In this document: piece after piece, positions 49,945 to 64,000 of the stretch
Numbering within the stretch: position 1 is the stretch's first letter
Layout of the letters: each line of letters opens with the position of its first letter
Assembly: GCA_963764165.1 (NCBI GenBank)
Contig: CAVXRD010000002.1
Span: 1,920,001-1,984,000, forward strand
Length of the DNA stretch: 64,000 nt
DNA from: an uncultured Verrucomicrobiae bacterium
GTDB taxonomy: Bacteria; Verrucomicrobiota; Verrucomicrobiia; Limisphaerales; Palsa-1400
Reading direction: 5' to 3'
The notes under the pieces: model-generated
Told to the model about the DNA's origin: nothing
Seen by the model: the letters and a program-made list of their open reading frames with translations, nothing else
Database searches by the model: none
Position numbers and translations under genes: made by a program

Positions 49945-51441
49945 ATGAACAATACACTGTCAGCGAACACCGGAGTGGCCATTCTCATTATCTACGGGAT
50001 CGCCATGTTTTTCCTGTCGCTTTGGGTTGTTCGAGGGCGTAGGCAAACCAAGGCCGAATTCTTGCTTGCCAGTCGCAGTGTTGGAATTATTCCAGGAGCC
50101 ATGTCTATCGCAGCGTCATGGATATGGGCTCCTGCTTTGTTTGTATCTTCTTCAAAAACTTATCAGCAAGGATTGGCGGGCCTTTTTTGGTATCTCGCGC
50201 CCAACGTCGCAACCCTTATGATTTTTGGCCCTTTTGCAGCGAAATTAAGAACAAGGTTGCCTGACGGCTATACTCTGCCGCAGCATATGCGAAACGAATA
50301 CGGCAGCGGTGTCCATGTCCTCTATTTGATTCAATTCTTTGGTCTCCAGATTTGTTGCTTCGCGGTCGAGATTTTCGCAGGAGCTACTCTCATGCATTTA
50401 ATTACGGGCCTCAGCTTCGTCTCCGTGGCGCTGTCGTTGATCGGCATTGTGCTCGCATACGCCGTGATGGGGGGCTTGAGAGCGTCTGTGGCAACGGATT
50501 ACGTCCAAATGGCAGCGATGATTGTCATTTGCGGCCTTGTCGTCCCGTGGGCTGTAGCCAAGGCCGGGGGACTTTCGGTAATTTTAGCGGGTTTGGGTGG
50601 ATTGAATGGGGCATACGTTGATCCAAACAACCCAACCAGCCCCTCCTACTCGTATGCGAACCCGCTGAACCCTTGGGTCATTTGGTCGTTTGGAATATCC
50701 AACACTATCAGCTTATTTTCCGGTCCACTTGGTGATCAAATGCAATGGCAGAGGGCTTTCGCGTTGCGCTCTCAAGGAACAGTCAAGCGGACTTTTTTTC
50801 TTGCGGCTTTACTTTTTGGGTCGGTGCCTCTGGCTTTGAGCAACCTCGGATTCATAGCATCAAACAAGGAAATTTCATCCGGCTGGAATATTACTGATCC
50901 GCAAATGGTAGGCCCCATCACTGTCGCTCACCTTTTGCCACACATGATGATAGTGATTTATGTAATCATGATATTATCAGGCCTTTGTGCGACACTGGAT
51001 TCAGTTTTATGTGCTATAGCGTCCCTTACCACGACAGACGTTTTTGGATATCAGAGTGAAAAAGCAGAGAAAGATCAGCAAGCTGTATTTATTTCACGTT
51101 GGGCAATGATTGTCGGTGCATTCTTGGGTTTTATTGTCGCGTATGTATGGCACGCTCTGCACCTCACAATCCTTGATTTGTTTCTTTTTTATGGAACGCT
51201 GAGAGCATCAACAATGATTCCAACAGTTGTTACCCTTCTTTGGCCCGGTTTGAGACCCGGAGTGATTTTTGCGACGATTCTCGCTTCCCTCCTGTTTGGT
51301 GCGCCTCTTATGGCGGCGGCTCGCCTTTCAAATGATGAACATGTCAAAGCAATTCTTAGTGTTGCGGGAAGCTTAGCCGTGGTAACCATCGGGATTGTCG
51401 GCTGCTGGATTGCTAAACGCTTCAGACAGACACAGTTGTAA
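49945..51441 (+). CDS. Sodium:solute symporter family (DUR3/PutP-like)
   Basis: EFLLASRSVG, SIAASWIWAPAL, GGLRASVATDYVQ, DQMQWQRAFA, STLDS-like ATLDS. Confidence 0.88.
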   Translation: MNNTLSANTGVAILIIYGIAMFFLSLWVVRGRRQTKAEFLLASRSVGIIPGAMSIAASWIWAPALFVSSSKTYQQGLAGLFWYLAPNVATLMIFGPFAAKLRTRLPDGYTLPQHMRNEYGSGVHVLYLIQFFGLQICCFAVEIFAGATLMHLITGLSFVSVALSLIGIVLAYAVMGGLRASVATDYVQMAAMIVICGLVVPWAVAKAGGLSVILAGLGGLNGAYVDPNNPTSPSYSYANPLNPWVIWSFGISNTISLFSGPLGDQMQWQRAFALRSQGTVKRTFFLAALLFGSVPLALSNLGFIASNKEISSGWNITDPQMVGPITVAHLLPHMMIVIYVIMILSGLCATLDSVLCAIASLTTTDVFGYQSEKAEKDQQAVFISRWAMIVGAFLGFIVAYVWHALHLTILDLFLFYGTLRASTMIPTVVTLLWPGLRPGVIFATILASLLFGAPLMAAARLSNDEHVKAILSVAGSLAVVTIGIVGCWIAKRFRQTQL

Positions 51442-51500
51442 TCCAAACACACTGTTATACCAACAATTGTTAAGGCTAGGGGGAAATTACTAACATACTT

Positions 51501-51755
51501 ATGAAAACGTGTTCTAGTTGTGGTGGTTGTGGTCGCATGGACTGTCCTCGAAGTAGCTTTGGAACAGTCACATGCACCTGCTGCGGCGGAGACGGTAAAG
51601 TTTTTGAAGGAACACGGGAGGTATTTTCCCTACTTTGCTTTTTTGGAGTGGGAAAATACGAAGTCACTTGTGCTAATTGTAAGCATGTGCATTCATACTA
51701 TTATGGCCCCATTAAACGAGCCACGTGCGAGAATTGTGGGTGCAACTTTGTTTGA
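51501..51755 (+). CDS. Small Cys-rich zinc-finger protein
   Basis: CSSCGGCG, CTCCGGDG (DnaJ-like CxxCxGxG) plus CANC and CENC. Confidence 0.55.
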   Translation: MKTCSSCGGCGRMDCPRSSFGTVTCTCCGGDGKVFEGTREVFSLLCFFGVGKYEVTCANCKHVHSYYYGPIKRATCENCGCNFV

Positions 51756-52265
51756 TCGATGCTCAAACCAGTGCCGCAATGTAGTTATTAGTGGGATTTG
51801 CTTTTGAACTAGATCGCATGTGTGTCCACTTCTTGATGCAGGAGTCCCTCATGTCCCGAGCGCGGCGGCTTTGCTTCGCCTTCGCACCCCGTACCCCGCC
51901 GCTGCGCTACGCAAAACCGCCGCACTCAGTCCGCCCCGGATTCGAGCTTGTCCCTCAGACGGAAAAACGCTCTGTTCCGCTTACTCGCCTGCCCCCCTTT
52001 CCCACGGGCGACCGCTCCACTGCGCGCCTTTCCGTCTGAGCGACAAAGTTTCGCGGCCCCCGCGCCCCATTTGGTAGTCATTGGGTTGTTTCCAAATCCA
52101 TTTTTTTGCGCGGTTCTCCTGCCTATCGCCCTCACCAGCCTGCTTTTCGAGCCGGGGGCCGGGCGCGGTTCCTCCTGAAGGCGACCTCCGCTGGCCGCCC
52201 GTCTCGGCAGGCTTTCTCGGTTGAAGGGCGATAGGCCGAGAACGCACAGAGCAAAAAAAAAGATT

Positions 52266-52652
52266 ATGAAAACAAAACAAAATCCAAAATCAGTTTCAGA
52301 GCTCCAGAACCGGACCGCACAGGGCAGTGAAGGCAAAGCGGAATTGCCGAAGATCGATTTGAACAAGCGCAACCGCAACCGGGTTTTGCCGATGGAATCC
52401 TTGCTTGAGTTGATTCGGAAGGAAGGACCCGCGTTTTGGGATGCCGTGGAAGTCGTCGGCAAATGGGTTTGGTTGCAGTTGGACGGCAAGCAGCCGAAGG
52501 AGATTACCGCCGTAATTTCGCAACTTGGCTTTCATTGGAACAACCGCCGCCAAGTCTGGCAGCACCCATGCGGACAGGTGACTGTCAGGGCCGACTTTGA
52601 CCCCCGCCGCAAATACCGCTCCTACTTCCCATCAGACCAGAAACCGGCCTAA
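52266..52652 (+). CDS. Hypothetical mobile-element protein
   Basis: EVVGKWVW...LGFHWNNRRQVWQHPCG; TAATG coupling to the RadC-like gene. Confidence 0.65.
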   Translation: MKTKQNPKSVSELQNRTAQGSEGKAELPKIDLNKRNRNRVLPMESLLELIRKEGPAFWDAVEVVGKWVWLQLDGKQPKEITAVISQLGFHWNNRRQVWQHPCGQVTVRADFDPRRKYRSYFPSDQKPA

Positions 52653-53179
52653 TGGAGATTTTACCCATGAACGAACAAATACCATTGTTTCCGGGTTTCG
52701 ACATCGTGAAACCGTTCAAGTTTCCGGCGCAGCCTTATGAATACAAGGTGACCGCCTTGCGGGAGTGTCCGACACCGGAACACATGCAGGAATGCGACAC
52801 ACCGGGCAAGGTTGCGGATTACTGGCGCAGGCACGTTCCCGCCCATCCGTATTTTAGCCCGGAATGCGAATGTTTCGTTGTCCTGATTCTCAACACCCGC
52901 CGCAGGGTGAAAGGTCATTACTTGGTCAGTGTCGGCACGATGGACTGTATTCTTGTCCACCCTCGGGAGGTTTTCAGGCTCGCGATTATGACCGCCGCAT
53001 CGGGCATCGTGTTGACCCACAACCACCCCAGCGGGGAGGCGTCCCCATCCGAAGCTGACATTAAGGTGACGCGTGACCTGATACGCGCCGGGCAACTTCT
53101 GAAAATCGAAGTCATTGACCACGTTGTGATCGGCAACCCCGGCCATGTTTCGCTCCATGAGCTTGGATACTTGTCTTGA
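52652..53179 (+). CDS. RadC-like JAB domain protein (no HhH domain)
   Basis: E.FVVL.LN, VHPREVF, HNHPSG...PSEAD...DHVVIG. Confidence 0.9.
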   Translation: MEILPMNEQIPLFPGFDIVKPFKFPAQPYEYKVTALRECPTPEHMQECDTPGKVADYWRRHVPAHPYFSPECECFVVLILNTRRRVKGHYLVSVGTMDCILVHPREVFRLAIMTAASGIVLTHNHPSGEASPSEADIKVTRDLIRAGQLLKIEVIDHVVIGNPGHVSLHELGYLS

Positions 53180-53183
53180 ACCC

Positions 53184-53377
53184 ATGAAACGCAACAAACG
53201 CCGCTTGCCTATCCCGCAGCACGAATTTGGTTTGTGCCCGACACGTTCACCCTGATTCAGGAAACCGGACTGGACGGAGATCGTTTGGCCCACGAACGCG
53301 CCGAGGCAGACCGCGCCCGGACTTTGGCCGAGAAAGCGCAAGCGGCTTTGTTCAACCCACCACCACGCAAAAACTGA
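53184..53377 (+). pseudogene. Small protein apparently split by a 1-bp deletion
   Basis: MKRNKRRLPIPQHEFG continues in another frame as VPDTFTLIQETGLDGDRLAHERAEAD...*, ending 1 bp before the next ATG. Confidence 0.4.
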
Positions 53378-53378
53378 T

Positions 53379-53780
53379 ATGAACACCGACGAAAACGAAT
53401 CGCCCTTTGGGCCAATTATTTACAGCTACACACGCGCCCAAGCCCTTGCCGATGGCGTGCAGGTTGACGTAACCACCACAGCGCAGGAAGCCGGAATTCG
53501 TTTTCCTGTATTCCTGACCCGCACTGTCTTTGACGCATACGTGACCGTTCCGCCCGGCATAGACGGGCAGGATGAAGCCGGGAGACTTTGGGACGTGCTT
53601 ACCCTCTTACGGCACGCCATCCGCGCCGCACGGCCCGGCCAAGACCGCTTGCCGTTTGCGCTCTACGTGCGCAACGACAACCGCCGCGCAAAACTCGTGA
53701 AGTTGATCGCCGCTTGCGGCGCAAAAGACATCGACGATCCGCAGCCGGCCATTACGGTAATGATGCGGGGGGAGGATTGA
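53379..53780 (+). CDS. DUF6573-like mobile-element protein
   Basis: IYSYTRAQALADGVQVDV...GQDEAGRLWDVL...PAITVM..ED. Confidence 0.75.
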   Translation: MNTDENESPFGPIIYSYTRAQALADGVQVDVTTTAQEAGIRFPVFLTRTVFDAYVTVPPGIDGQDEAGRLWDVLTLLRHAIRAARPGQDRLPFALYVRNDNRRAKLVKLIAACGAKDIDDPQPAITVMMRGED

Positions 53781-53799
53781 TCCACCCGAAAACACACGC

Positions 53800-53832
53800 C
53801 CGGCTAGACTGAAAACAGTTCAGCCGGTTTTT
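53800..53832 (+). terminator. Putative intrinsic terminator
   Basis: ccggct...agccgg stem followed by TTTTT. Confidence 0.5.
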
Positions 53833-54174
53833 AAGTTTGGGGACTCGCGCCGTCCCCAAACCCCCACCGCCAGAGGCATGGCCTCTGGACTCCATCACTC
53901 GCTTGCGCTGGCTTTTCCGCTTTCGCGCCCTTTCCGACATCGCGGAAAGGATATTGTTTGAAATCACCGGCACCGCTGAAATTCTGGCGGGTCAAACGAG
54001 CGTGCCACTGTCAGTAAAACCTCCAGTGAAAGCACCTGAAAGTTAGCAAAAATAGTGGCGAGTTAGGGCGAATTTTCATTGATTTTCAGAGGGAAAAGCT
54101 GTATTTTCCTCGTGTCTGAATTCGATAGACAGACTGTGTCAATCTGTGGCCAGAATCAGATGCGGCCCTGGCAA

Positions 54175-56235
54175 TCAGCGGGCTCTGGCCTTGGCGCCTT
54201 GTTTCCTGCCGCGCGATTTTTTGTAATTGACGCTGCTGCCGGCGGCTGGCGCGGTGCCGCTTTCGACTCCCGCGCCAAAGCTGCGTTTCAATTCGCGGAT
54301 TTGGTCGCGCAGCAGCGCGGCTTTCTCAAATTGCAAATTATTGGACGCTTCAATCATTTCCTCCTGCAATCCGCGCAACGTCTCTGTCAAATCGAAATCG
54401 CCGCCGGCCTCGCGCAGCACCATGTCCGCCCGCTGGCGCTGATTCTGGTAGACGGCCAGGCTTTCCTCCACCGCGCGGACGACGCTCCGGGGCGTGATGT
54501 TGTGCTGCGTGTTGTAGGCGATCTGCCGCTCACGGCGATAGGCCGAAACCGCGAGAAATTGCTCAATGCTGTGCGTGCGGACATCGGCGTATAAAATCAC
54601 CTCGCCGTTGAGGTGGCGCGCGGCGCGGCCGGCGGTTTGGATCAGGCTGGTCGCGCTGCGGAGAAAACCTTCCTTGTCGGCGTCAAGTATAGCGACCAAA
54701 GAGACTTCGGGCAGGTCGAGGCCCTCGCGCAGAAGATTGATGCCGACCAGCACGTCGAATTCCCCTTTGCGCAGCGCGCGCAGGACTTCCACGCGCTCAA
54801 CGGCGTCAATTTCGCTGTGCAGATAGCGGACGAGAATGCCGAGTTCGCGCAAATAATCCGTCAATTCCTCGGCGGATTTTTTGGTCAGCGTCGTCACCAG
54901 TGTGCGTTCCTTGCTGGTGGCGCGTTTGCGGACTTCCTCCAGCAAATCATCAATCTGCCCCTTTAACGGCTTGAGCGTAATCTTGGGATCAATCAGGCCG
55001 GTGGGGCGGACGATTTGCTCAACCACCCAGCCTTGCGACCATTCCAGTTCCTGCGCCTGCGGGGTCGCGCTGATGTAAATGGTCTGCTTCTGGAACGCTT
55101 GAAATTCCTTGAAATCCAAGGGCCGGTTATCCAGCGCGCTCGGCAATCGAAAACCGTGCTCTACCAGCACCGTTTTGCGCGAGCGATCACCCGCATACAT
55201 GCCGCCGATTTGCGGAATGGTCGTATGCGATTCGTCGACGACGAGCATGTAATCGCCCGGGAAAAAATCCAGCAGCGTGCCCGGGCGCGACCCGGCGGGG
55301 CGACCCGCGAGATGGCGCGAATAATTTTCGATGCCGGAGCAAAATCCCATTTCCTCCATCATTTCCAAATCGTACTCCGTGCGCATCTTGATGCGCTGCG
55401 CCTCGATCAGTTTGCCTTCCTTTTCGAACCACGCTATCCGGTGGCCGAGTTCCTCGCGGATATTCAGGATGGCGCTCTTGATCTTGTCCTGCGGCGTGAC
55501 GAATTGCTTGGCGGGAAAAATCACGATGGATTGCGGGCTTTCCGTTTTCTCGCCCGTCAGCGGCTCGAAGCGGGAAAGGCGCTCGATTTCATCGCCGAAA
55601 AATTCGATGCGCAAGCCGTCCTCGCTCCACGAGGGGCGCAATTCCACCACATCGCCGCGGACGCGGAATTGGCCGCGCTCGAACGCGACGTCGTTGCGCG
55701 CATATTGCAAATCGACAAAGCGGCAGAGCAATTGGTCGCGCGAAATCTGCTGGCCGACGAACACCTGCTGCACCAGCGCCTCGTAATTCTCGCGGCTGCC
55801 GATGCCGTAAATGCACGACACACTGGCCACCACGATCGTGTCGCGCCGCGTGAGCAGCGAACTCATGGTCGAGAGCCGCAGCCGCTCGATTTCCTCGTTA
55901 ATGCTCGAGTCCTTTTCGATGAACGTGTCAGTGCGCGGAATGTAGGCTTCCGGCTGGTAGTAATCGAAATAGCTGACGAAATATTCGACGGCGTTCTTGG
56001 GGAAAAACGATTTGAATTCCGCGTAAAGCTGCGCCGCCAGCGTTTTGTTGTGCGAGATGACGAGAGTTGGGCGGTTGACGTTCTGGATGACGTTCGCGAC
56101 AGTGAAGGTCTTGCCCGATCCGGTGACGCCGACGAGCGTTTGATGCTTCGCGCCCGCCAGCACGCCTTCAGTGAGTTTGGCGATGGCTTTAGGCTGGTCG
56201 CCGGCGGGCTGGTAGGGAGCGGACAATTCAAACAT
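54175..56235 (-). CDS. uvrB: Excinuclease ABC subunit B
   Basis: PAGDQP, GVTGSGKT, HNKTLAAQL, YYQPEAY, DESH, GRAAR, C-terminal UVR domain. Confidence 0.98.
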   Translation of the reverse strand: MFELSAPYQPAGDQPKAIAKLTEGVLAGAKHQTLVGVTGSGKTFTVANVIQNVNRPTLVISHNKTLAAQLYAEFKSFFPKNAVEYFVSYFDYYQPEAYIPRTDTFIEKDSSINEEIERLRLSTMSSLLTRRDTIVVASVSCIYGIGSRENYEALVQQVFVGQQISRDQLLCRFVDLQYARNDVAFERGQFRVRGDVVELRPSWSEDGLRIEFFGDEIERLSRFEPLTGEKTESPQSIVIFPAKQFVTPQDKIKSAILNIREELGHRIAWFEKEGKLIEAQRIKMRTEYDLEMMEEMGFCSGIENYSRHLAGRPAGSRPGTLLDFFPGDYMLVVDESHTTIPQIGGMYAGDRSRKTVLVEHGFRLPSALDNRPLDFKEFQAFQKQTIYISATPQAQELEWSQGWVVEQIVRPTGLIDPKITLKPLKGQIDDLLEEVRKRATSKERTLVTTLTKKSAEELTDYLRELGILVRYLHSEIDAVERVEVLRALRKGEFDVLVGINLLREGLDLPEVSLVAILDADKEGFLRSATSLIQTAGRAARHLNGEVILYADVRTHSIEQFLAVSAYRRERQIAYNTQHNITPRSVVRAVEESLAVYQNQRQRADMVLREAGGDFDLTETLRGLQEEMIEASNNLQFEKAALLRDQIRELKRSFGAGVESGTAPAAGSSVNYKKSRGRKQGAKARAR

Positions 56236-56383
56236 AGCCCAGCAACGTAAGAACTGCGCGTGAATGTGTCAAACCCGAGCGCAGCAAGCATTCCTCGAAA
56301 TTTGGATCGAGCGCCTCACGGCTGTTCCGCGGCAGGTGTGATTTGATGTGGGTGGGGCGCAAGTGATTTTGAATTGAGCGGAT

Positions 56384-56555
56384 CGCGGCTGTGTCGAAGA
56401 CCGGCCGCAGCCGTTTCGATACAACTAGCGCGCTGGAGAGATTTCCAAGCTTCGCCAGTCGCGGTTCCGAAGGCTTGATATGTTTTTCGGTGATGGCCAC
56501 AACAAGATTCGTTTCCGGTTGTTCGAGTGTTGCGGCGGCTGGTCTTCGATACGGC
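56384..56555. repeat. REP-like pair (GCTGTGTCGAAGACC family), copy 2
   Basis: cgcggctgtgtcgaagaccggccgcagc with inverted gcggctggtcttcgatacggc (18/21). Confidence 0.65.
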
Positions 56556-56811
56556 AGCCTAAAGAGCTGCATCCCTCACCCATTTCTAATCATACCCTTC
56601 CGTGGCTGTTTGCCTCCTTTGGGCTTGACCCGGCCAGGGTAAATGCCCGATTCTATATGCGGAAACAGATTTGGCATCTTGTTGGCTTCCGGGTCTGCGT
56701 TCCTGGCGATTTGCTCATAGTGGTCCAAATCCTGCCGGACGCGATTTCGCGGTCAACACGCAGTTCAACAGGGCCAGTGGCGAGCTGCGCAGTCGTGGAT
56801 GCAGAGCTGTT

Positions 56812-58168
<1,357 letters not shown>

Positions 58169-58172
<4 letters not shown>

Positions 58173-58360
58173 GTTAATCCTCCTTCAATTAAACTTTGCA
58201 CGTCGCTCAACCGAAACCGGACGCTGCCGAGGACCTTGACCTGAGCCAACCGCCCGACAGCTACCAATCTCTCCACTGTCCGTTCCGAACATGCCAATAG
58301 TTGCGCGACCTCTTTTTTGCGCAGCAATTTGTCTTTCGCTATTTCAATCACTTCTCGCAT
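58169..58360 (-). CDS. Excisionase-like HTH protein
   Basis: LLRKKEVAQLLACSERTVERL...SVRF; coupled to the integrase start. Confidence 0.85.
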
Positions 58361-58361
58361 T

Positions 58362-58727
58362 TCAAATCTCCTTTAACAGCCGTTCGGCAGTGTGTTCCCG
58401 GTCTTCCGCTTCGGCCTGATCCGGTGACAGATGTTTGGTGTAAACGCGATAGACCGCGCTATGGTCTGCGTCAATGTTGCGCTCTCCGAGCCAGTCCGAA
58501 ATCTGGCGGTAGGTAAAGCCCTTTTCTCGCAGCTTGGCAATGACCTGCCAGTACTTGTCCAGATCAAGCTGATTGGATTCCTGTTCGGCTTCCTCTAGCA
58601 AGTCATCCGGGAAGGGCGGGGGTGCGAGTTTTTTGGCCGGTTCATCGGCGGTGGCTCCTGGCCGAGCGGTTGACGATGGCGGTTTCTCCGGGCCAGCGGA
58701 GTGCCGTTTTGCCGCTTTATTTTTCAT
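58362..58727 (-). CDS. Hypothetical protein with HTH-like segment
   Basis: IAKLREKGFTYRQISDWL...HSAVYR. Confidence 0.65.
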   Translation of the reverse strand: MKNKAAKRHSAGPEKPPSSTARPGATADEPAKKLAPPPFPDDLLEEAEQESNQLDLDKYWQVIAKLREKGFTYRQISDWLGERNIDADHSAVYRVYTKHLSPDQAEAEDREHTAERLLKEI

Positions 58728-58998
58728 GCGCTCACACTAAACGAACAAAACGAACGGTGCAAGCCAAAATTTTCACTTTTCACCAAATTTAGTCAAGAAG
58801 AATTATCGCGCCGCGCTCGTATCTTGAATTTGAACCGACACTGCGCCCACCGCCACCGAGCAACTGCCGACTTCGAGTGACAAAATGAAACTTAAAGGCT
58901 GCAGCACCCCTTTTTTAACGATAAAACCGAGATTTCAGGCCACTTTTTCCTTGCCAATCGGCAGATTGTGCCAAAGAGTCGCAACAGTTCTTTACATA

Positions 58999-59203
58999 GG
59001 CCAAGGTCATTTGAATCCTTGGTTATGAGTCTTTGCGTTGCGAGGACTCGAACTTCATTCCGAACACGACCAAATTCGATCTCACGAAGTTTGCCTTGAC
59101 GCGCGCCTAATCGCGCGTCCTGGTGTGCTTTCGTGAGAAGGCCGCTTGGTCGTGGCCTGGAATGAGGGTGCGCTAGGCGCGCCTATTCTTTTTCCAAGGA
59201 TTC
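58999..59203 (+). ncRNA. Candidate structured cis-regulatory leader RNA with terminator
   Basis: Six nested helices, a GC hairpin + U-tract, and mutually exclusive pairings (see findings). Confidence 0.5.
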
Positions 59204-59292
59204 TTCGAGTTTCCCGCCATCATTTTCACAGTTGACCGAATTATTGACACGATGTATAAGTGTTCCTGAGGAAGGTTTTAAGTTTTGCTGCA

Positions 59293-60135
59293 ATGAGTCC
59301 GAAAAAGGCATATTGGGCTTTTACGCTCATCGAGTTGCTGGTGGTCATTGCCATCATCGCGATACTCGCTGCGCTTCTGCTTCCCGCCTTATCCGCAGCC
59401 AAACATCACGCCCTAGACATCAAATGTGTCAGTAATCTCAAACAAATCACCGGCGGCGGGCTGATGTACATGGATGATTCGGGGCAAACTATTTTGTTTT
59501 GCGACACAAACCTCACGGGTTCTTGGGCCAGGCAATTGACCCCCTATGGTATGACAAGCAATCTGTTGCTTTGCCCAGCTACGAAGGCGCAAGGCCCTCC
59601 AATCTTGGACGGCGGATTGACTGGAACGGCGAGTCTCGCTTGGAACAATTGCCCTCCAGACTTCCCAAACTCGATTAACGGCAGCTATGGGATAAACGGC
59701 TGGCTTTTCTCCTACGACCCAAGCATCACGAGCGATATTACGACCTGGATTGGCCCACCGGTGCCTCCTGTTGCAAACAATCCAAATTACATCTTTGACA
59801 AACCAACATCGGTTCAACGGCCTTCGAGTACTCCGTTTTTCAGCGATGCTACCTGTTGGAACGAATGGCCCTTGGAAGTAGACGCGCCGGCCACCGATCT
59901 TTCAATAGGGGACGCATTTAACGTGTGGGGCATGGGCCGTTCAACCATTTGGCGGCACGGCGGCAAAACCGCCACCTCTAAAACACCCGTTCAACACATA
60001 AATCTCGCTCCCTATTATATTTTTCCAAATTCTGCCGCTATAAATATCGGATTCGTGGATGGGCACTCTCAGCAAGTGAAGGTTAAAGACCTTTGGAACC
60101 AGTATTGGCACTATAATTGGACGCCTCCGCCGTGA
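59293..60135 (+). CDS. Prepilin-type N-terminal cleavage / H-X9-DG domain protein
   Basis: [43 protein letters not shown]...NIGFVDGH. Confidence 0.88.
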
Positions 60136-60244
60136 TTTTCGATTTCTTCCAACAACACCACAACAAACCAAATTCCTCTCGACCAGAAGTGTCGAAGGGC
60201 GAGCGCACATTGCTGCTCGTAAACCCGTCAGAAAGGCCCCCAAC

Positions 60245-61784
60245 ATGAAAAGCTCTCTCAGAATATCTGCGTTATTAGCTGTTATCTTGACTGTCTTCGT
60301 CGTCACCCTGCCATCGGAATGCTGGGCGCAGGGCGAACCGGAGGCGCCCAATTTGGTGCAAGTGACAGTCATGCCCACCAATGGCTTGTTTTGGAGCATG
60401 CAGATTACGAATCTTTTTCCTTTTCCGGCAGACCCGTACCCTTCACTTTCGCTCTACACGGACGGAAACGGCAATTATTACTACGACGACACGAGTGTCG
60501 ATTATTCCATTGGCGCCGATGTGAAGGGAAATCGGAATAAAACGGGGCGCTCCGGGGGAAATGGCCCAAAAGCCCAAGATGAACCGCCATTGCCCGGGGG
60601 AACCAACTATGGGACGAACGGCGGAACGGGTTATCCCATCGCCGCACTTGTCATCCCGACAAACTACGTGCCCTGTGAAAGCTTTACGAACTTTGCATTG
60701 GATATTTTTGCCAACTCCGGTGACGTCGATATTTACATTACAAACTCTCTGGCCTCGATGTCGTATAATCTGGTGATAACGACGAACTTGGCGCAGCCAA
60801 ATTGGACGGTCATTCGGACAGTGACGGCCAGCAATTACCTTACTTTTGCCACAAATATGGCAATTGGAACAAACGCGTGCCTTTTCTTTGGGGCAACGCT
60901 GACTACCAATGATTTGCCTCCGGTAATCACCGTTCCCCCGACCAATCGCATTGTTGGGACCGGTTCCTCTGCCACCTTTACGGTTTCCGCCTTCGGCCTG
61001 GAGCCATTAAGCTATCAATGGCAGTTGAACGGCACCAACTTGCCCGGCGCGACCGCAACGAATTTGACAATCAGCAGCGCGCAAGCAACCAATGTCGGCA
61101 TCTATACCGTCGTTGTGTCAAACGTGATCTGCTGGGCCGATGCCTCGGCCAATCTTGGCTTGATTTGGTCGAACTATATCGGCGCGGGTTACGGCATCGA
61201 CGCTTCGCCTGCCATTGGCAGCAATGGCGTGGTTTATATCGCCACCACAGGCAACCAAATTTATGCGTTGGACGGAGCTACCGGCAACGGCAAATGGACA
61301 AACACAATTTCGACTGGCGGAGAGATTACTTCTTCCGCGGCTCTCAGTGCTGACAACACGAGCGTAATCGTTGGCTCGCAAAACGGTTATCTTTATGCAT
61401 TTTATGCTTCCAATGGCGCGCCCCGGTGGAGCAACAACCTCGGGGGAGCCATTTATTCATCTCCTGCAATTAGCCATTCAAACGGTGCAATCTACATTGC
61501 CACCTCGGGCACGACCAACGGTCTCTTTGCTGTCAACCCAACCACCGGGGCCATAGAATGGTTACTTTCCCACCGATGACGTTAACAGCCAAAATAGCGG
61601 CATTGATTCCTCTCCCGCCATCGGTACTGATAACACCATCTATTTTGTCAGCAGCGGAGGGGGACTCTATGCTATAAATCCAAATGGCACGTTAAAATGG
61701 TTTTTCCCGTTGCCTGCCGGGTCAAGTCCCGATAGCTCGCCGGCGATTGGATCGAATGAAATTTACGTGGGTTCGGCAATCTGA
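60245..61784 (+). pseudogene. Secreted Ig-like + PQQ-type beta-propeller protein, frameshifted and truncated
   Basis: Signal peptide; P.LSYQWQLNG..LPGAT Ig domain; SSPAI repeats continue in another frame from 61563 to TGA 61784. Confidence 0.7.
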
Positions 61785-62359
61785 GTTCGCGGCTCTCGTT
61801 TTCCGGCAATCTCAACAGCGCCAATGATCCGTATTACGGGATGTGGCTCAACTACACCGGCAGCGGAATCTCGTTCCTTTTGGAAGGCTCCAAGTTCTAT
61901 GCCGCGCCCAGCACGAATTCGCCCTACACTCTCCAACTTTCCGTCGATGGCGCAGGCAACGGCACAGCGTTGCTGGCGGACACGAATGGAAACATCCTGT
62001 CGTTGGAAACAGAGCTATCCGTGGGCCTCGATCCTCTCTGCGTGGTGCTGGCGCAGCGTGAAGGCCAGCCCAATCCAAACGCCGTCGGAACAAATGTCTC
62101 CATCTGGAATTGCGCGACGGTAGTCAGCGGCGCCATTCCTCCCGTCCAAATTGCCCCGGGCTATCCGCAGAGCGTGACGCCGTCCGGCTTCAAGATGATG
62201 CTGCAGGGGCCAATTGGCTCCAATTACGTCATTGAGACATCGACTGATCTTCAGTCGTGGTCGACGCTGACCAACATCGTTAGCACGAATACGCCGTTCT
62301 TTTTCAATGACGCGACGCGCGGCGCAGCGCGATACTACCGGGCAGGATTGCAACGGTGA
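61775..62359 (+). pseudogene. 3' fragment of a second secreted protein
   Basis: No signal peptide; frame closed by TGA at 61757; ends GSNYVIETSTDLQSW...RYYRA. Confidence 0.55.
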
Positions 62360-62563
62360 TAGACTGGCCGAGAGGCGGCAATCGTCACTTGCGTCTCACC
62401 CAGCTTCAGCGACACCACGTGCCGGGGTTCGAATCTCCCCCTCCCCGCCAATTTTTCCCGCCCACCGCCGCTTGCTCCATCGTCAATGGCTCTCAAATAT
62501 AATTCGCAGGCCACAATTTTTTTCAAAGGTTTCCGGGCACCCGGCAGTCAAACGGGCTGTAGC

Positions 62564-64000
62564 ATGAAATTCCGGCGCGTCCTACTCATCGGTTTGCTTA
62601 TTGCCTCCATCGGCGTCTTAATTGGCGTGCGCATTTACACATCCCGCCTGCCGTCCCGGATCGGCACGTTTTCAGACGAAGAGTTCATCGCGGCGCGGCG
62701 GCTGGCGGGTGATTCCAATGAGCCGGCGCCGACGATGATCGTTCAAACTCCAATCGATTATTCCAAGCGCGTTCGCGTTTCCATCGGCAGCTTGGGGCTC
62801 CGCGGGGACGAGGATCAAAAAGTGGCCGCGCTCACGCTCGCCAACCTCAGCGCGGCCCGAGGTGTGGAATTGATCGAGCGAGAGGAGTTGGAGAAAGCGC
62901 TGCAGGAAATCCATATGCTCATGGACGGCTTCGTCCGGGCAAAGGACACTCTGCAGGTCGGCCAGATCCTTCACGCTGACTGGTTTGTCCTCGGTTCGTG
63001 GTATGATTTCAACGGAACAAATTCCGTCGTCATCCGAATTGTTGACGCGCACACGGGCGTTTTGCGCGCCGCGCGATTTCTCGACGGAGACTCCAGCCCG
63101 GCCCAAATGGCGGCGGAGCTGGCGGAGATTGTTCAAAATGCCCGCTCGCTCGCCACCACGACGAATCCTCCCGTGTTCGTGGGCTTGAGCGGATTTGACA
63201 ACGTAGGCGTCAATGACCGCCTGGCGGATTTCCCTCAGCAGCTCCGCGCCGGACTCACCGCCGAATATCGGGATTCGCACATCACCCTGGTGGAGCGCGA
63301 ACGCGTGGGCTTCCTGCTCCACGAAATGGCTCTCGACGCGTCCGGCTTCGCGGATTCCTCGAACAGCGCTCCGTTCGTTCCGCAGCCGGCGTTCTGGATT
63401 GTGGGCGGCTCTTACCAATCGTACGAAACAACCCAGCGCACCGTCGAACTCCGCGTCGAGATCGATCAAGTCTTCGGCACCTTGCGCGAAAAGTCGTTCC
63501 GGGTGCCAACGGGAGCGGAAGCTGTCGCGGCGGTGAAATCGTATGTGGACCAGACGATCGCCGCGCGAAGCCCGGCCGTGCATTACTCGAGAGTCACCGA
63601 AGCAAGCTGGTATCTTGATGTTGGAAAGCGAATTGCGGGATTGACTCCTGGCTCCCGGTCTTCGATTTTCAACACCACATACTCCCAGCAGCCAACGCCC
63701 ATGGAAGCGCGAAACATTCGCGAGGCGATGTCCGCCTTTCAATCCGCTGTTTTGCTGGAACCCACGAATCGGCCGGCGCGTTTGTATCTGGCCCAATGCC
63801 TGAAAATGCATTCCATCGGCAAGTATGAGGAGGCGCGTGAGATGCTGAAAAGCATCATCGATGAGGGTGTCCGCGACCAGTGGAAGATTCCCGCAGAAAT
63901 GCAGATGCAATTTCGCTACGAGATTAGCACGGAGAATATGGTGCGGTGGCTTGACGAGGCCGCGGCCAAGGCCACAAACGCAGTGGCAGCCGATTTTTAC
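62564..64000 (+). CDS. CsgG/HfaB-like domain + TPR protein (3'-partial)
   Basis: Hand translation MKFRRVLLIG...VELIEREELEKALQE...VGQILHADWFVLGS...IRIVDAHTG; absent from the ORF track, consistent with running off the window. Confidence 0.65.
   Translation, partial: MKFRRVLLIGLLIASIGVLIGVRIYTSRLPSRIGTFSDEEFIAARRLAGDSNEPAPTMIVQTPIDYSKRVRVSIGSLGLRGDEDQKVAALTLANLSAARGVELIEREELEKALQEIHMLMDGFVRAKDTLQVGQILHADWFVLGSWYDFNGTNSVVIRIVDAHTGVLRAARFLDGDSSPAQMAAELAEIVQNARSLATTTNPPVFVGLSGFDNVGVNDRLADFPQQLRAGLTAEYRDSHITLVERERVGFLLHEMALDASGFADSSNSAPFVPQPAFWIVGGSYQSYETTQRTVELRVEIDQVFGTLREKSFRVPTGAEAVAAVKSYVDQTIAARSPAVHYSRVTEASWYLDVGKRIAGLTPGSRSSIFNTTYSQQPTPMEARNIREAMSAFQSAVLLEPTNRPARLYLAQCLKMHSIGKYEEAREMLKSIIDEGVRDQWKIPAEMQMQFRYEISTENMVRWLDEAAAKATNAVAADFY

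Follow-up and report, generated by a model that had tools for sequence, protein, structure and literature searches.

By comparison with its homologues, the leader RNA described here, encoded in a stretch of 64,000 nucleotides (the window), represents a real, phylum-wide family of bistable leader RNAs that has no entry in Rfam. More than 150 distinct members were gathered, with deep covariation, in a phylum with little known RNA regulation. The design is unusual in that three rods are built from strands that each have two partners: the 5′ half can fold on itself (Rod A) and so can the 3′ half (Rod B), or both halves can join in a central rod (AB). That these two folds, A + B and AB, exclude each other is well supported by the alignments, and control of termination by the leader is likely. 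A preliminary description of the locus had proposed a switch-like leader, and the exclusive, conserved folds found here agree with it; an attenuator is still the best reading, although termination itself is something that we infer. Judged from the folds and alignments, the switch is larger than was then described, because the whole 3′ half makes a rod of ~80 nt, to which a rod of the 5′ half is the counterpart.

Folding of 58990-59210 on the plus strand gave −105.1 kcal/mol (z = −8.42), a stability reached by none of 200 dinucleotide shuffles; the minus strand of the same stretch gave z = −6.37. Among 276 sliding 200-nt folds across 50001-64000, each with 12 shuffles, the leader stretch scored highest. 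Another strong 200-nt fold, with z about −7 on both strands, lies at 52101-52300, just 5′ of a RadC-containing gene group. A plus-strand RNA had been proposed from the G-U pairs, and under RNA rules the plus strand was indeed the better folder in 88 of 89 homologues. The conserved GTTCTTT was present in 103 of the 104 parsed homologues (one mismatch allowed), and a TTG sits 35-37 nt 5′ of it in 87 of 103 long-type homologues. Because of this spacing and the strand preference we infer a promoter-proximal RNA. The element would start at about 58986 and its promoter at about 58951, both outside the coordinates 58999..59203 of the preliminary description (Table 1).

Table 1. Features of the leader RNA and its surroundings (positions in the window)
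Feature	Position	Strand	Basis or remark
Left end of small island, divergent from the RNA	56812..58727	.	gene annotation
tRNA-Ser	56812-56903	+	
Tyrosine integrase	56847-58172	−	
HTH_17 gene	58169-58360	−	
ORF	58362-58727	−	
Putative sigma70-type promoter TTGCCA / 17 nt / AAGAGT	58951..58979	+	sequence; site not listed by promoter scanner
Putative RNA 5′ end, conserved AGTTCTTT	58986..58993	+	start site predicted from spacing
P0, variable 5′ hairpin	58999..59024	+	alignment; hairpin ≤ −5 kcal/mol in 85/89
P1 hairpin, long type only; keeps segment S from Rod A	59027..59049	+	pairing
Rod A, 5′-half self-fold	59034..59105	+	minimum-energy fold of 58986-59110, −32.4 kcal/mol
Rod A helices	59034-38/59101-05; 59041-45/59094-98; 59049-56/59086-93	+	P2 and P3 5′ strands left in loop
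Central rod AB, putative read-through fold	59053..59167	+	pairing and covariation
AB helices P2; P3	59053-61/59159-67; 59065-73/59146-54	+	within 59053..59167
AB helices P4; P5	59080-89/59129-38; 59092-59105/59112-59125	+	within 59053..59167
A loop GACCAA, complement of B loop	59068..59073	+	covarying pairing
Rod B, 3′-half self-fold, putative long terminator hairpin	59113..59182	+	−47.7 kcal/mol, z = −5.72
Rod B helices	59113-17/59178-82; 59119-34/59162-77; 59139-45/59152-58	+	
B loop TTGGTC, Rod B apex	59146..59151	+	closing hairpin stronger than with shuffled arms, long and short type
Small hairpin remaining in AB fold (terminator of the preliminary description), with U-rich tail 59184-59193	59166..59193	+	scanner
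Decayed remnant of 3′ T strand (partner of S in most homologues)	59204..59210	+	only TTCGAGT left
Second promoter-like site TTGACC / 17 nt / TATAAG, directly 5′ of prepilin gene	59232..59260	+	read from sequence
Prepilin-type protein, N-terminal methylation motif	59293..60135	+	PF07963, E 2.6e-4, just under its cut-off
Secreted Ig / PQQ-propeller gene	60245..62359	+	frame broken after 61579 into at least 2 frames

Searching 58500-59700 against Rfam 15 gave no family above its cut-off (best match 17.6 bits, E 1.2, where the cut-off is 55), in line with the earlier impression that this is not a known riboswitch. Seven homologous loci matched nothing in Rfam but one tRNA, and the five matches of a distant member (L238) were all at chance level. 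A description of the motif was not found in the literature, where large published candidate lists may include it unnamed; in a term search, Verrucomicrobia was absent from the main texts of PMC2864571, PMC5737381, PMC11109978, PMC8632094 and bioRxiv 10.64898/2026.10.21.760802.

BLAST detected homologues in six of 30 other genomes of the same family and matches in 35 of 401 genomes across the order, some of them short and at chance level. A scan for the sequence pattern, with each species represented by one genome, returned 47 matches, of which 31 had the whole motif and 16 were chance pattern matches; 28 of these 31 records are titled Verrucomicrobiota or Limisphaerales, and the other three Ca. 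Acidoferrum or Bifidobacteriaceae. The latter three assemblies measure 5.2-6.8 Mb with 1-9 motif copies each, and the Bifidobacteriaceae titles of at least two records (L073, L087; G570, G571; 5.2-5.8 Mb, up to 9 copies) are doubtful. With a different pattern, metagenomes yielded 114 matches, and all 80 that were counted had the whole motif. The long-type set comprised 112 full members after removal of near-duplicates (104 parsed, 8 dropped), and the diverse alignment used for covariation had 36 long-type rows.

A short type, which is without the segments S and T, was found via a weak match in this genome, whose seven family copies are the present long-type copy and six of the short type. Short-type matches occurred in 24 of 31 genomes of the family, often several per genome, and a covariance model built from seven short copies had matches in 24 of 151 genomes across the phylum and recovered the present copy at 36.7 bits. 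The short and distant set had 55 rows (43 parsed, 12 dropped), and a joint alignment of long and short types was too poor for model building. Eight distinct phage loci carry the motif, the other 40 of 48 viral matches being chance pattern; the long-type pattern had 0 matches in viral contigs. Paired matches 1-2 kb apart on a single contig were seen in L215 (G019), G004:C24 and G007:C5, and three matches lie inside 23 kb in G019:C34.

In the 36 long-type rows, 93.9% of the AB cells were paired and 17 pairs changed on both sides (P1 and the small hairpin counted in), a number that exceeded all 500 shuffles and all slid controls, so that covariation among the collected homologues is strong. The A and B loops, that is, the six variable P3 pairs, were paired at 6/6 positions in 97 of 104 members, compared with a mean of 28.4 and a maximum of 40 for shuffled partners, and they occur in more than 10 sequence versions. 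P2 reached −10.96 against −5.03 for shuffled partners. Because kin are not independent, the shuffle controls overstate the case, and we regard the sequence variety of the loops and P2, together with the tree, as the stronger support. AB is ~20 kcal/mol more stable than A + B and, in equilibrium folding of the growing transcript, was preferred at every length once P5 existed.

The evidence for the second fold differs between its two rods: sequence comparison argues for the Rod B helices as it does for AB, and more weakly for Rod A. Rod A is the minimum-energy fold of the 5′ half in the present copy and in 21 of 103 long-type members, and P1 in 81 of 103. P1 was paired in 98.3% of cells with no two-sided change, and it is without covariation support because it never varies on both sides. 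With P1 blocked, Rod A cost a mean of 4.0 kcal/mol and formed with at least 8 bp in 96 of the 103 long-type members. Where S changes from A to G, the Rod A partner has C in 14 of 16 members; on a tree with those columns masked, the bootstrap of which had not converged, this change arose at least five separate times. Among short-type members, Rod A formed at hinge length in 36 of 43 and the A loop was unpaired (p > 0.7) in 36 of 43; the rod is thermodynamically modest there (mean z −1.29).

Folded alone, the 3′ half adopted Rod B in 84 of 104 members of the long type and in 38 of 43 that are short or distant; a 6-nt loop forms the tip, and the base always carries the U-rich tail. The hairpin that holds the P3 3′ strand is conserved, with a 6-nt loop and covarying arms. 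The base helix of the short-type Rod B scored −18.95 against −16.33 for shuffled partners (minimum −17.24), and the small hairpin is usually the weaker of the two; the inner helix scored −10.2 against −7.43 in the short type and was marginal in the long type (−9.36, with a shuffle minimum of −9.34). In the 36-row long-type alignment the base helices of Rods A and B together had five two-sided pairs, a count matched in 243 of 500 shuffles; the strands are nearly invariant there, and this covariation test is weak.

These comparisons also change how several pairings of the preliminary description are to be read. All nine that it listed are present at their coordinates, each position Watson-Crick or G-U. 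The pairing of 58999-59006 with 59017-24, which had been taken for an alternative, is the conserved 5′ hairpin P0. An outer helix, 59013-22/59194-203, is perfect here, but −10 kcal/mol is reached only in this copy (1/89), and across homologues its mean energy (−3.8) was no better than that with shuffled partners (−3.9). The 9-bp match between a loop (59101-09) and the terminator (59174-82), present here, is complete in just 10 of 104 members. A scanner did pick up the terminator-like site at 59166-59184 (1.1 such sites expected by chance in the 700 bases scanned); the small hairpin of 59167-59183 is not supported as the terminator, however, its conserved alternative being the ~80-nt rod.

The tail that follows Rod B varies between types. 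Long-type tails had a mean of 5.0 T in 8 positions (104 members), with a longest run of at most 3 in 53 of 104, whereas at least 6 T of 8 were found in 27 of 43 short-type members; by eye the tail is weak in several phage copies. Such weak U tails would fit a platform for processing or translation, on which AB is cut by RNase III or RNase P, freeing Rods A and B as small RNAs or altering access to the start codon, with little termination. RNase III is present in this genome, CI and C4 are described as RNase P substrates (PMC5499578), start codons lie ~10-35 nt from the tail in many short-type and phage copies, and the T strand and a 3′ hairpin are conserved beyond the tail. We nevertheless judge this platform improbable: canonical U runs end many distant members, and long-type start codons lie in A-rich stretches past all conserved helices.

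The T strand itself lies 3′ of the long-type tail. Of the 90 homologues that have T, 80 form 12 or more of the 13 bp between it and S, and in the full-length ensemble of the long type T strips P2. The present copy has kept everything from P0 to the tail and lost most of T. L107 and L142 carry an insertion of similar sequence, ~45 nt long and containing a short inverted repeat, either within the motif or immediately behind it, and a look-alike occurs here at 59221-59254, where the T strand is lost; the inserted segment is possibly a recombination site.

Returning to control of termination, we propose that the A + B fold would terminate and AB would read through, because Rod B ends at the U tail. 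In the computed folding the 5′ half forms Rod A first in the short type and stands within ~4 kcal/mol between P1 and Rod A in the long type; since it is displaced into AB at equilibrium, read-through would be the default. Rod B would need help to form, because AB wins at every length after P5, and its phylum-wide conservation implies that it does so when something holds or removes the 5′ arm. The complement of so variable an arm would be the simplest agent to hold it. Once freed or terminated, Rod B would present just the loop and strands needed to catch a new transcript at its 5′ arm, the finished RNA kissing the nascent one through the complementary 6-nt loops, and the 3′ half of the captured transcript would be forced into Rod B. 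The variable P2 and P3 letters would serve as the address. A cassette or phage that enters a cell without the RNA would then give a burst of expression followed by self-specific shut-down. In the long type, the downstream T strand may re-pair with S after read-through, a step for which the present copy has no T. Taken as a whole, this attenuator, with a finished copy of the same RNA as its kissing trigger, is our best single guess, advanced tentatively. Arrival-triggered control is less obviously useful for the long-type copies, most of which lie beside ordinary chromosomal genes.

Co-folding energies put the binding of Rod B to its own 5′ arm at about −21 to −24 kcal/mol and cross binding at about −5 to −9 kcal/mol on average; cross binding was under −5 kcal/mol in 108 of 150 long-type pairs. 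Strong self binding is no proof of action in trans, because it is a trivial consequence of AB. The same folds and terminator could instead serve a decision taken in cis, in which a protein, a small ligand, an ion or a polymerase pause would stabilise Rod A or break P1 until Rod B forms, and the loops would kiss intramolecularly and so nucleate the read-through rod. All helices found are explicable in this way; P1 and Rod A differ by only ~4 kcal/mol, and the invariant letters in S, the 5′ GTTCTTT and a 2×3 AA/NCC internal loop provide a candidate binding site. Most invariant letters, on the other hand, already have at least two pairing partners, the P1 loop can take up 14 extra nucleotides, and the downstream genes share no common pathway. 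Control by a NusG paralogue (RfaH/UpxY/LoaP) was rejected, as both paralogues of this genome (C1:1453652, C2:776414) lie far from all seven copies and adjoin none of them. We consider the decision in cis rather unlikely.

Two further readings were tried and rejected. A leader-peptide attenuator has no fixed start codon over the 5′ arm, where 1-nt and 14-nt indels shift the frame (alignments, by eye), and for a tRNA as partner of segment S, the only 13-nt complement in this genome is the element itself. A metabolite riboswitch is unlikely because the downstream genes, which are rarely prepilins, share no pathway. Rho is present in this genome, and a second near-full-length Rho-like gene besides the main rho (G000:C2:2562652-2563740, 492.9 bits) falls just below the cut-off; a search for RNase J gave nothing over the cut-off.

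The link to a prepilin gene in the preliminary description is not upheld by the homologues, in which a prepilin start is the first downstream ORF at 2 of 112 loci and lies further downstream at one more. The prepilin gene here may be a later insertion, possibly independent of the switch. It has its own promoter-like site, which the scanner omits because it requires T at the last position. The broken Ig / PQQ-propeller gene behind it is of the kind usual behind the motif, and at its N-terminus it is similar to the first genes behind the motif in L006 and L007. Its last piece ends in 'YYR', like the C-terminal 'FYR' of many genes behind the motif; these ends are perhaps a sorting domain. At 62424-62450, inside a decayed tRNA-like stretch that begins at ~62355, the 3′ end of the tRNA-Ser recurs almost unchanged, and this is probably where an island of ~5.5 kb ends on the right; ARAGORN and Rfam detected nothing there.

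Elsewhere, the long type precedes genes for large signal-peptide proteins (subtilase in 8 of 35, Ig, RCC1, PQQ), and the short type precedes genes for response regulators, DNA methylase, RadC, helicase and secreted proteins. Upstream of 77 long-type loci stand many different core genes (UvrD, rpsB, EF-G, RpoB, GreA, NDK), and the cassettes occupy scattered sites at which no mobility gene was seen. At long-type loci, L049, L078, L094, L119 and L149 among them, an exported-looking second gene usually follows the large secreted gene directly, often with overlapping stop and start, a layout that recalls effector/immunity or cargo/partner pairs. At the eight phage loci a tiny ORF follows the motif, and a convergent gene lies opposite, in 3 of 8 a repressor gene. 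In L267, L305, L322 and five other IMG/VR loci, the short-type motif lies between lipoprotein-like genes and a convergent repressor-like gene, with an ORF of 8-54 codons behind it, and read-through would enter the repressor gene antisense. The motif thereby sets apart, as jointly regulated, a class of secreted-protein cassettes at scattered sites and a position next to phage repressors.

Multiple non-syntenic copies behind varied core genes, a cassette G+C below that of the upstream DNA in 37 of 42, and the occurrence in phages and islands are also what a single-stranded DNA element would produce, a recombination site or a replication or transfer signal that moves the cassette and whose folds are DNA hairpins. 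Promoter spacing and orientation to the next gene are fixed, however, and there is a U tail; the strand preference follows RNA rules (88/89), and with DNA rules Rod B has only −15.3 kcal/mol. The cassette ends share no sequence, nothing being found in common beyond related flanking genes. A DNA element is thus highly improbable. General ties to integrases and tRNAs were also rejected: none of 77 upstream ORFs had an integrase match (naive ORF choice; 38 of 77 without any match at 1e-10), the integrase in this window being an exception among long-type loci, and a tRNA was found at 1 of 88 loci.

Among known systems, the family resembles riboswitch and T-box attenuators in being a promoter-proximal leader with exclusive folds and a hairpin and U tract at its end. 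It differs from them in the absence of an Rfam match and of a common downstream pathway and in a putative terminator that takes up the whole 3′ half, and, unlike in the T-box, no antiterminator bulge was seen by eye. Antisense-controlled attenuators and kissing antisense RNAs (pT181/pIP501, CopA, IS10 RNA-OUT) use long hairpins whose apical loop kisses the target and then zips onto it. Rod B is likewise a long hairpin, whose apical loop of 6 nt and neighbouring bulges could kiss and zip in this way, and its variable loops would act as a specificity code; its partner, in contrast, is encoded in tandem on the same strand and is not a counter-transcript, and the scanner saw no opposite-strand promoter at the 3′ end of the present copy. 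If the kissing in trans is true, the family would be a natural set of orthogonal RNA-triggered terminators. A still broader reading, a phylum-wide, protein-free and self-addressed switch in which finished transcripts convert their own nascent copies to the terminated fold and the OFF state spreads from RNA to RNA, a phage-immunity-like device whose orthogonal copies pulse newly arrived secreted-protein or defence cassettes, seems to us unlikely.

'Mobile attenuators', as described in PMC2965389, are terminator-bearing transposon ends of insertion sequences with little divergence; the present family shares with them related terminator-bearing sequences 5′ of unrelated genes and departs from them in its deep covariation and in upstream ORFs without a transposase or integrase match (0/77). 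In phage P4, the processed CI RNA pairs with the upstream seqA and a downstream site of its own leader, leading to termination (PMC4825925). IsrK (RF01394) and the C4 antisense RNA (RF01695), of P1/P7 and Gifsy-1, are given there as structural homologues of seqA and CI (PMC4825925, PMC3632133), CI and C4 being processed by RNase P (PMC5499578), and for P1 immI control by the product of its own transcript has been proposed (PMC8201110). Neither covariance model matches the loci, and the family is therefore not a member of C4/IsrK: the C4 model gave four matches at E ≤ 10 in five motif-bearing genomes, none over the cut-off or at a motif locus, and all 15 matches of the isrK model in this genome fell below the threshold and away from the seven copies. 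The second RNA here is also an unbranched rod of ~80 nt with its own U tail, its complementarity spans the entire 5′ arm, and the genes behind most copies, of which a genome has several, are chromosomal ones for secreted proteins or cargo. As in the P4 and C4 systems, there are two tandem structured leader segments of which the second is complementary to the first, with the B loop and the P2 3′ strand covarying with upstream strands in the way of a C4-type upstream target. There is a further complementary site downstream (T in this family, seqC in P4), and in phages a regulatory region lies before a small ORF, with a proposed control by the product of the same transcript. The seqA/CI leader of P4 has the closest logic, and the family may work alike; if kissing in trans is true, the RNA immunity of P4 and P1 would here be generalised to chromosomal genes.
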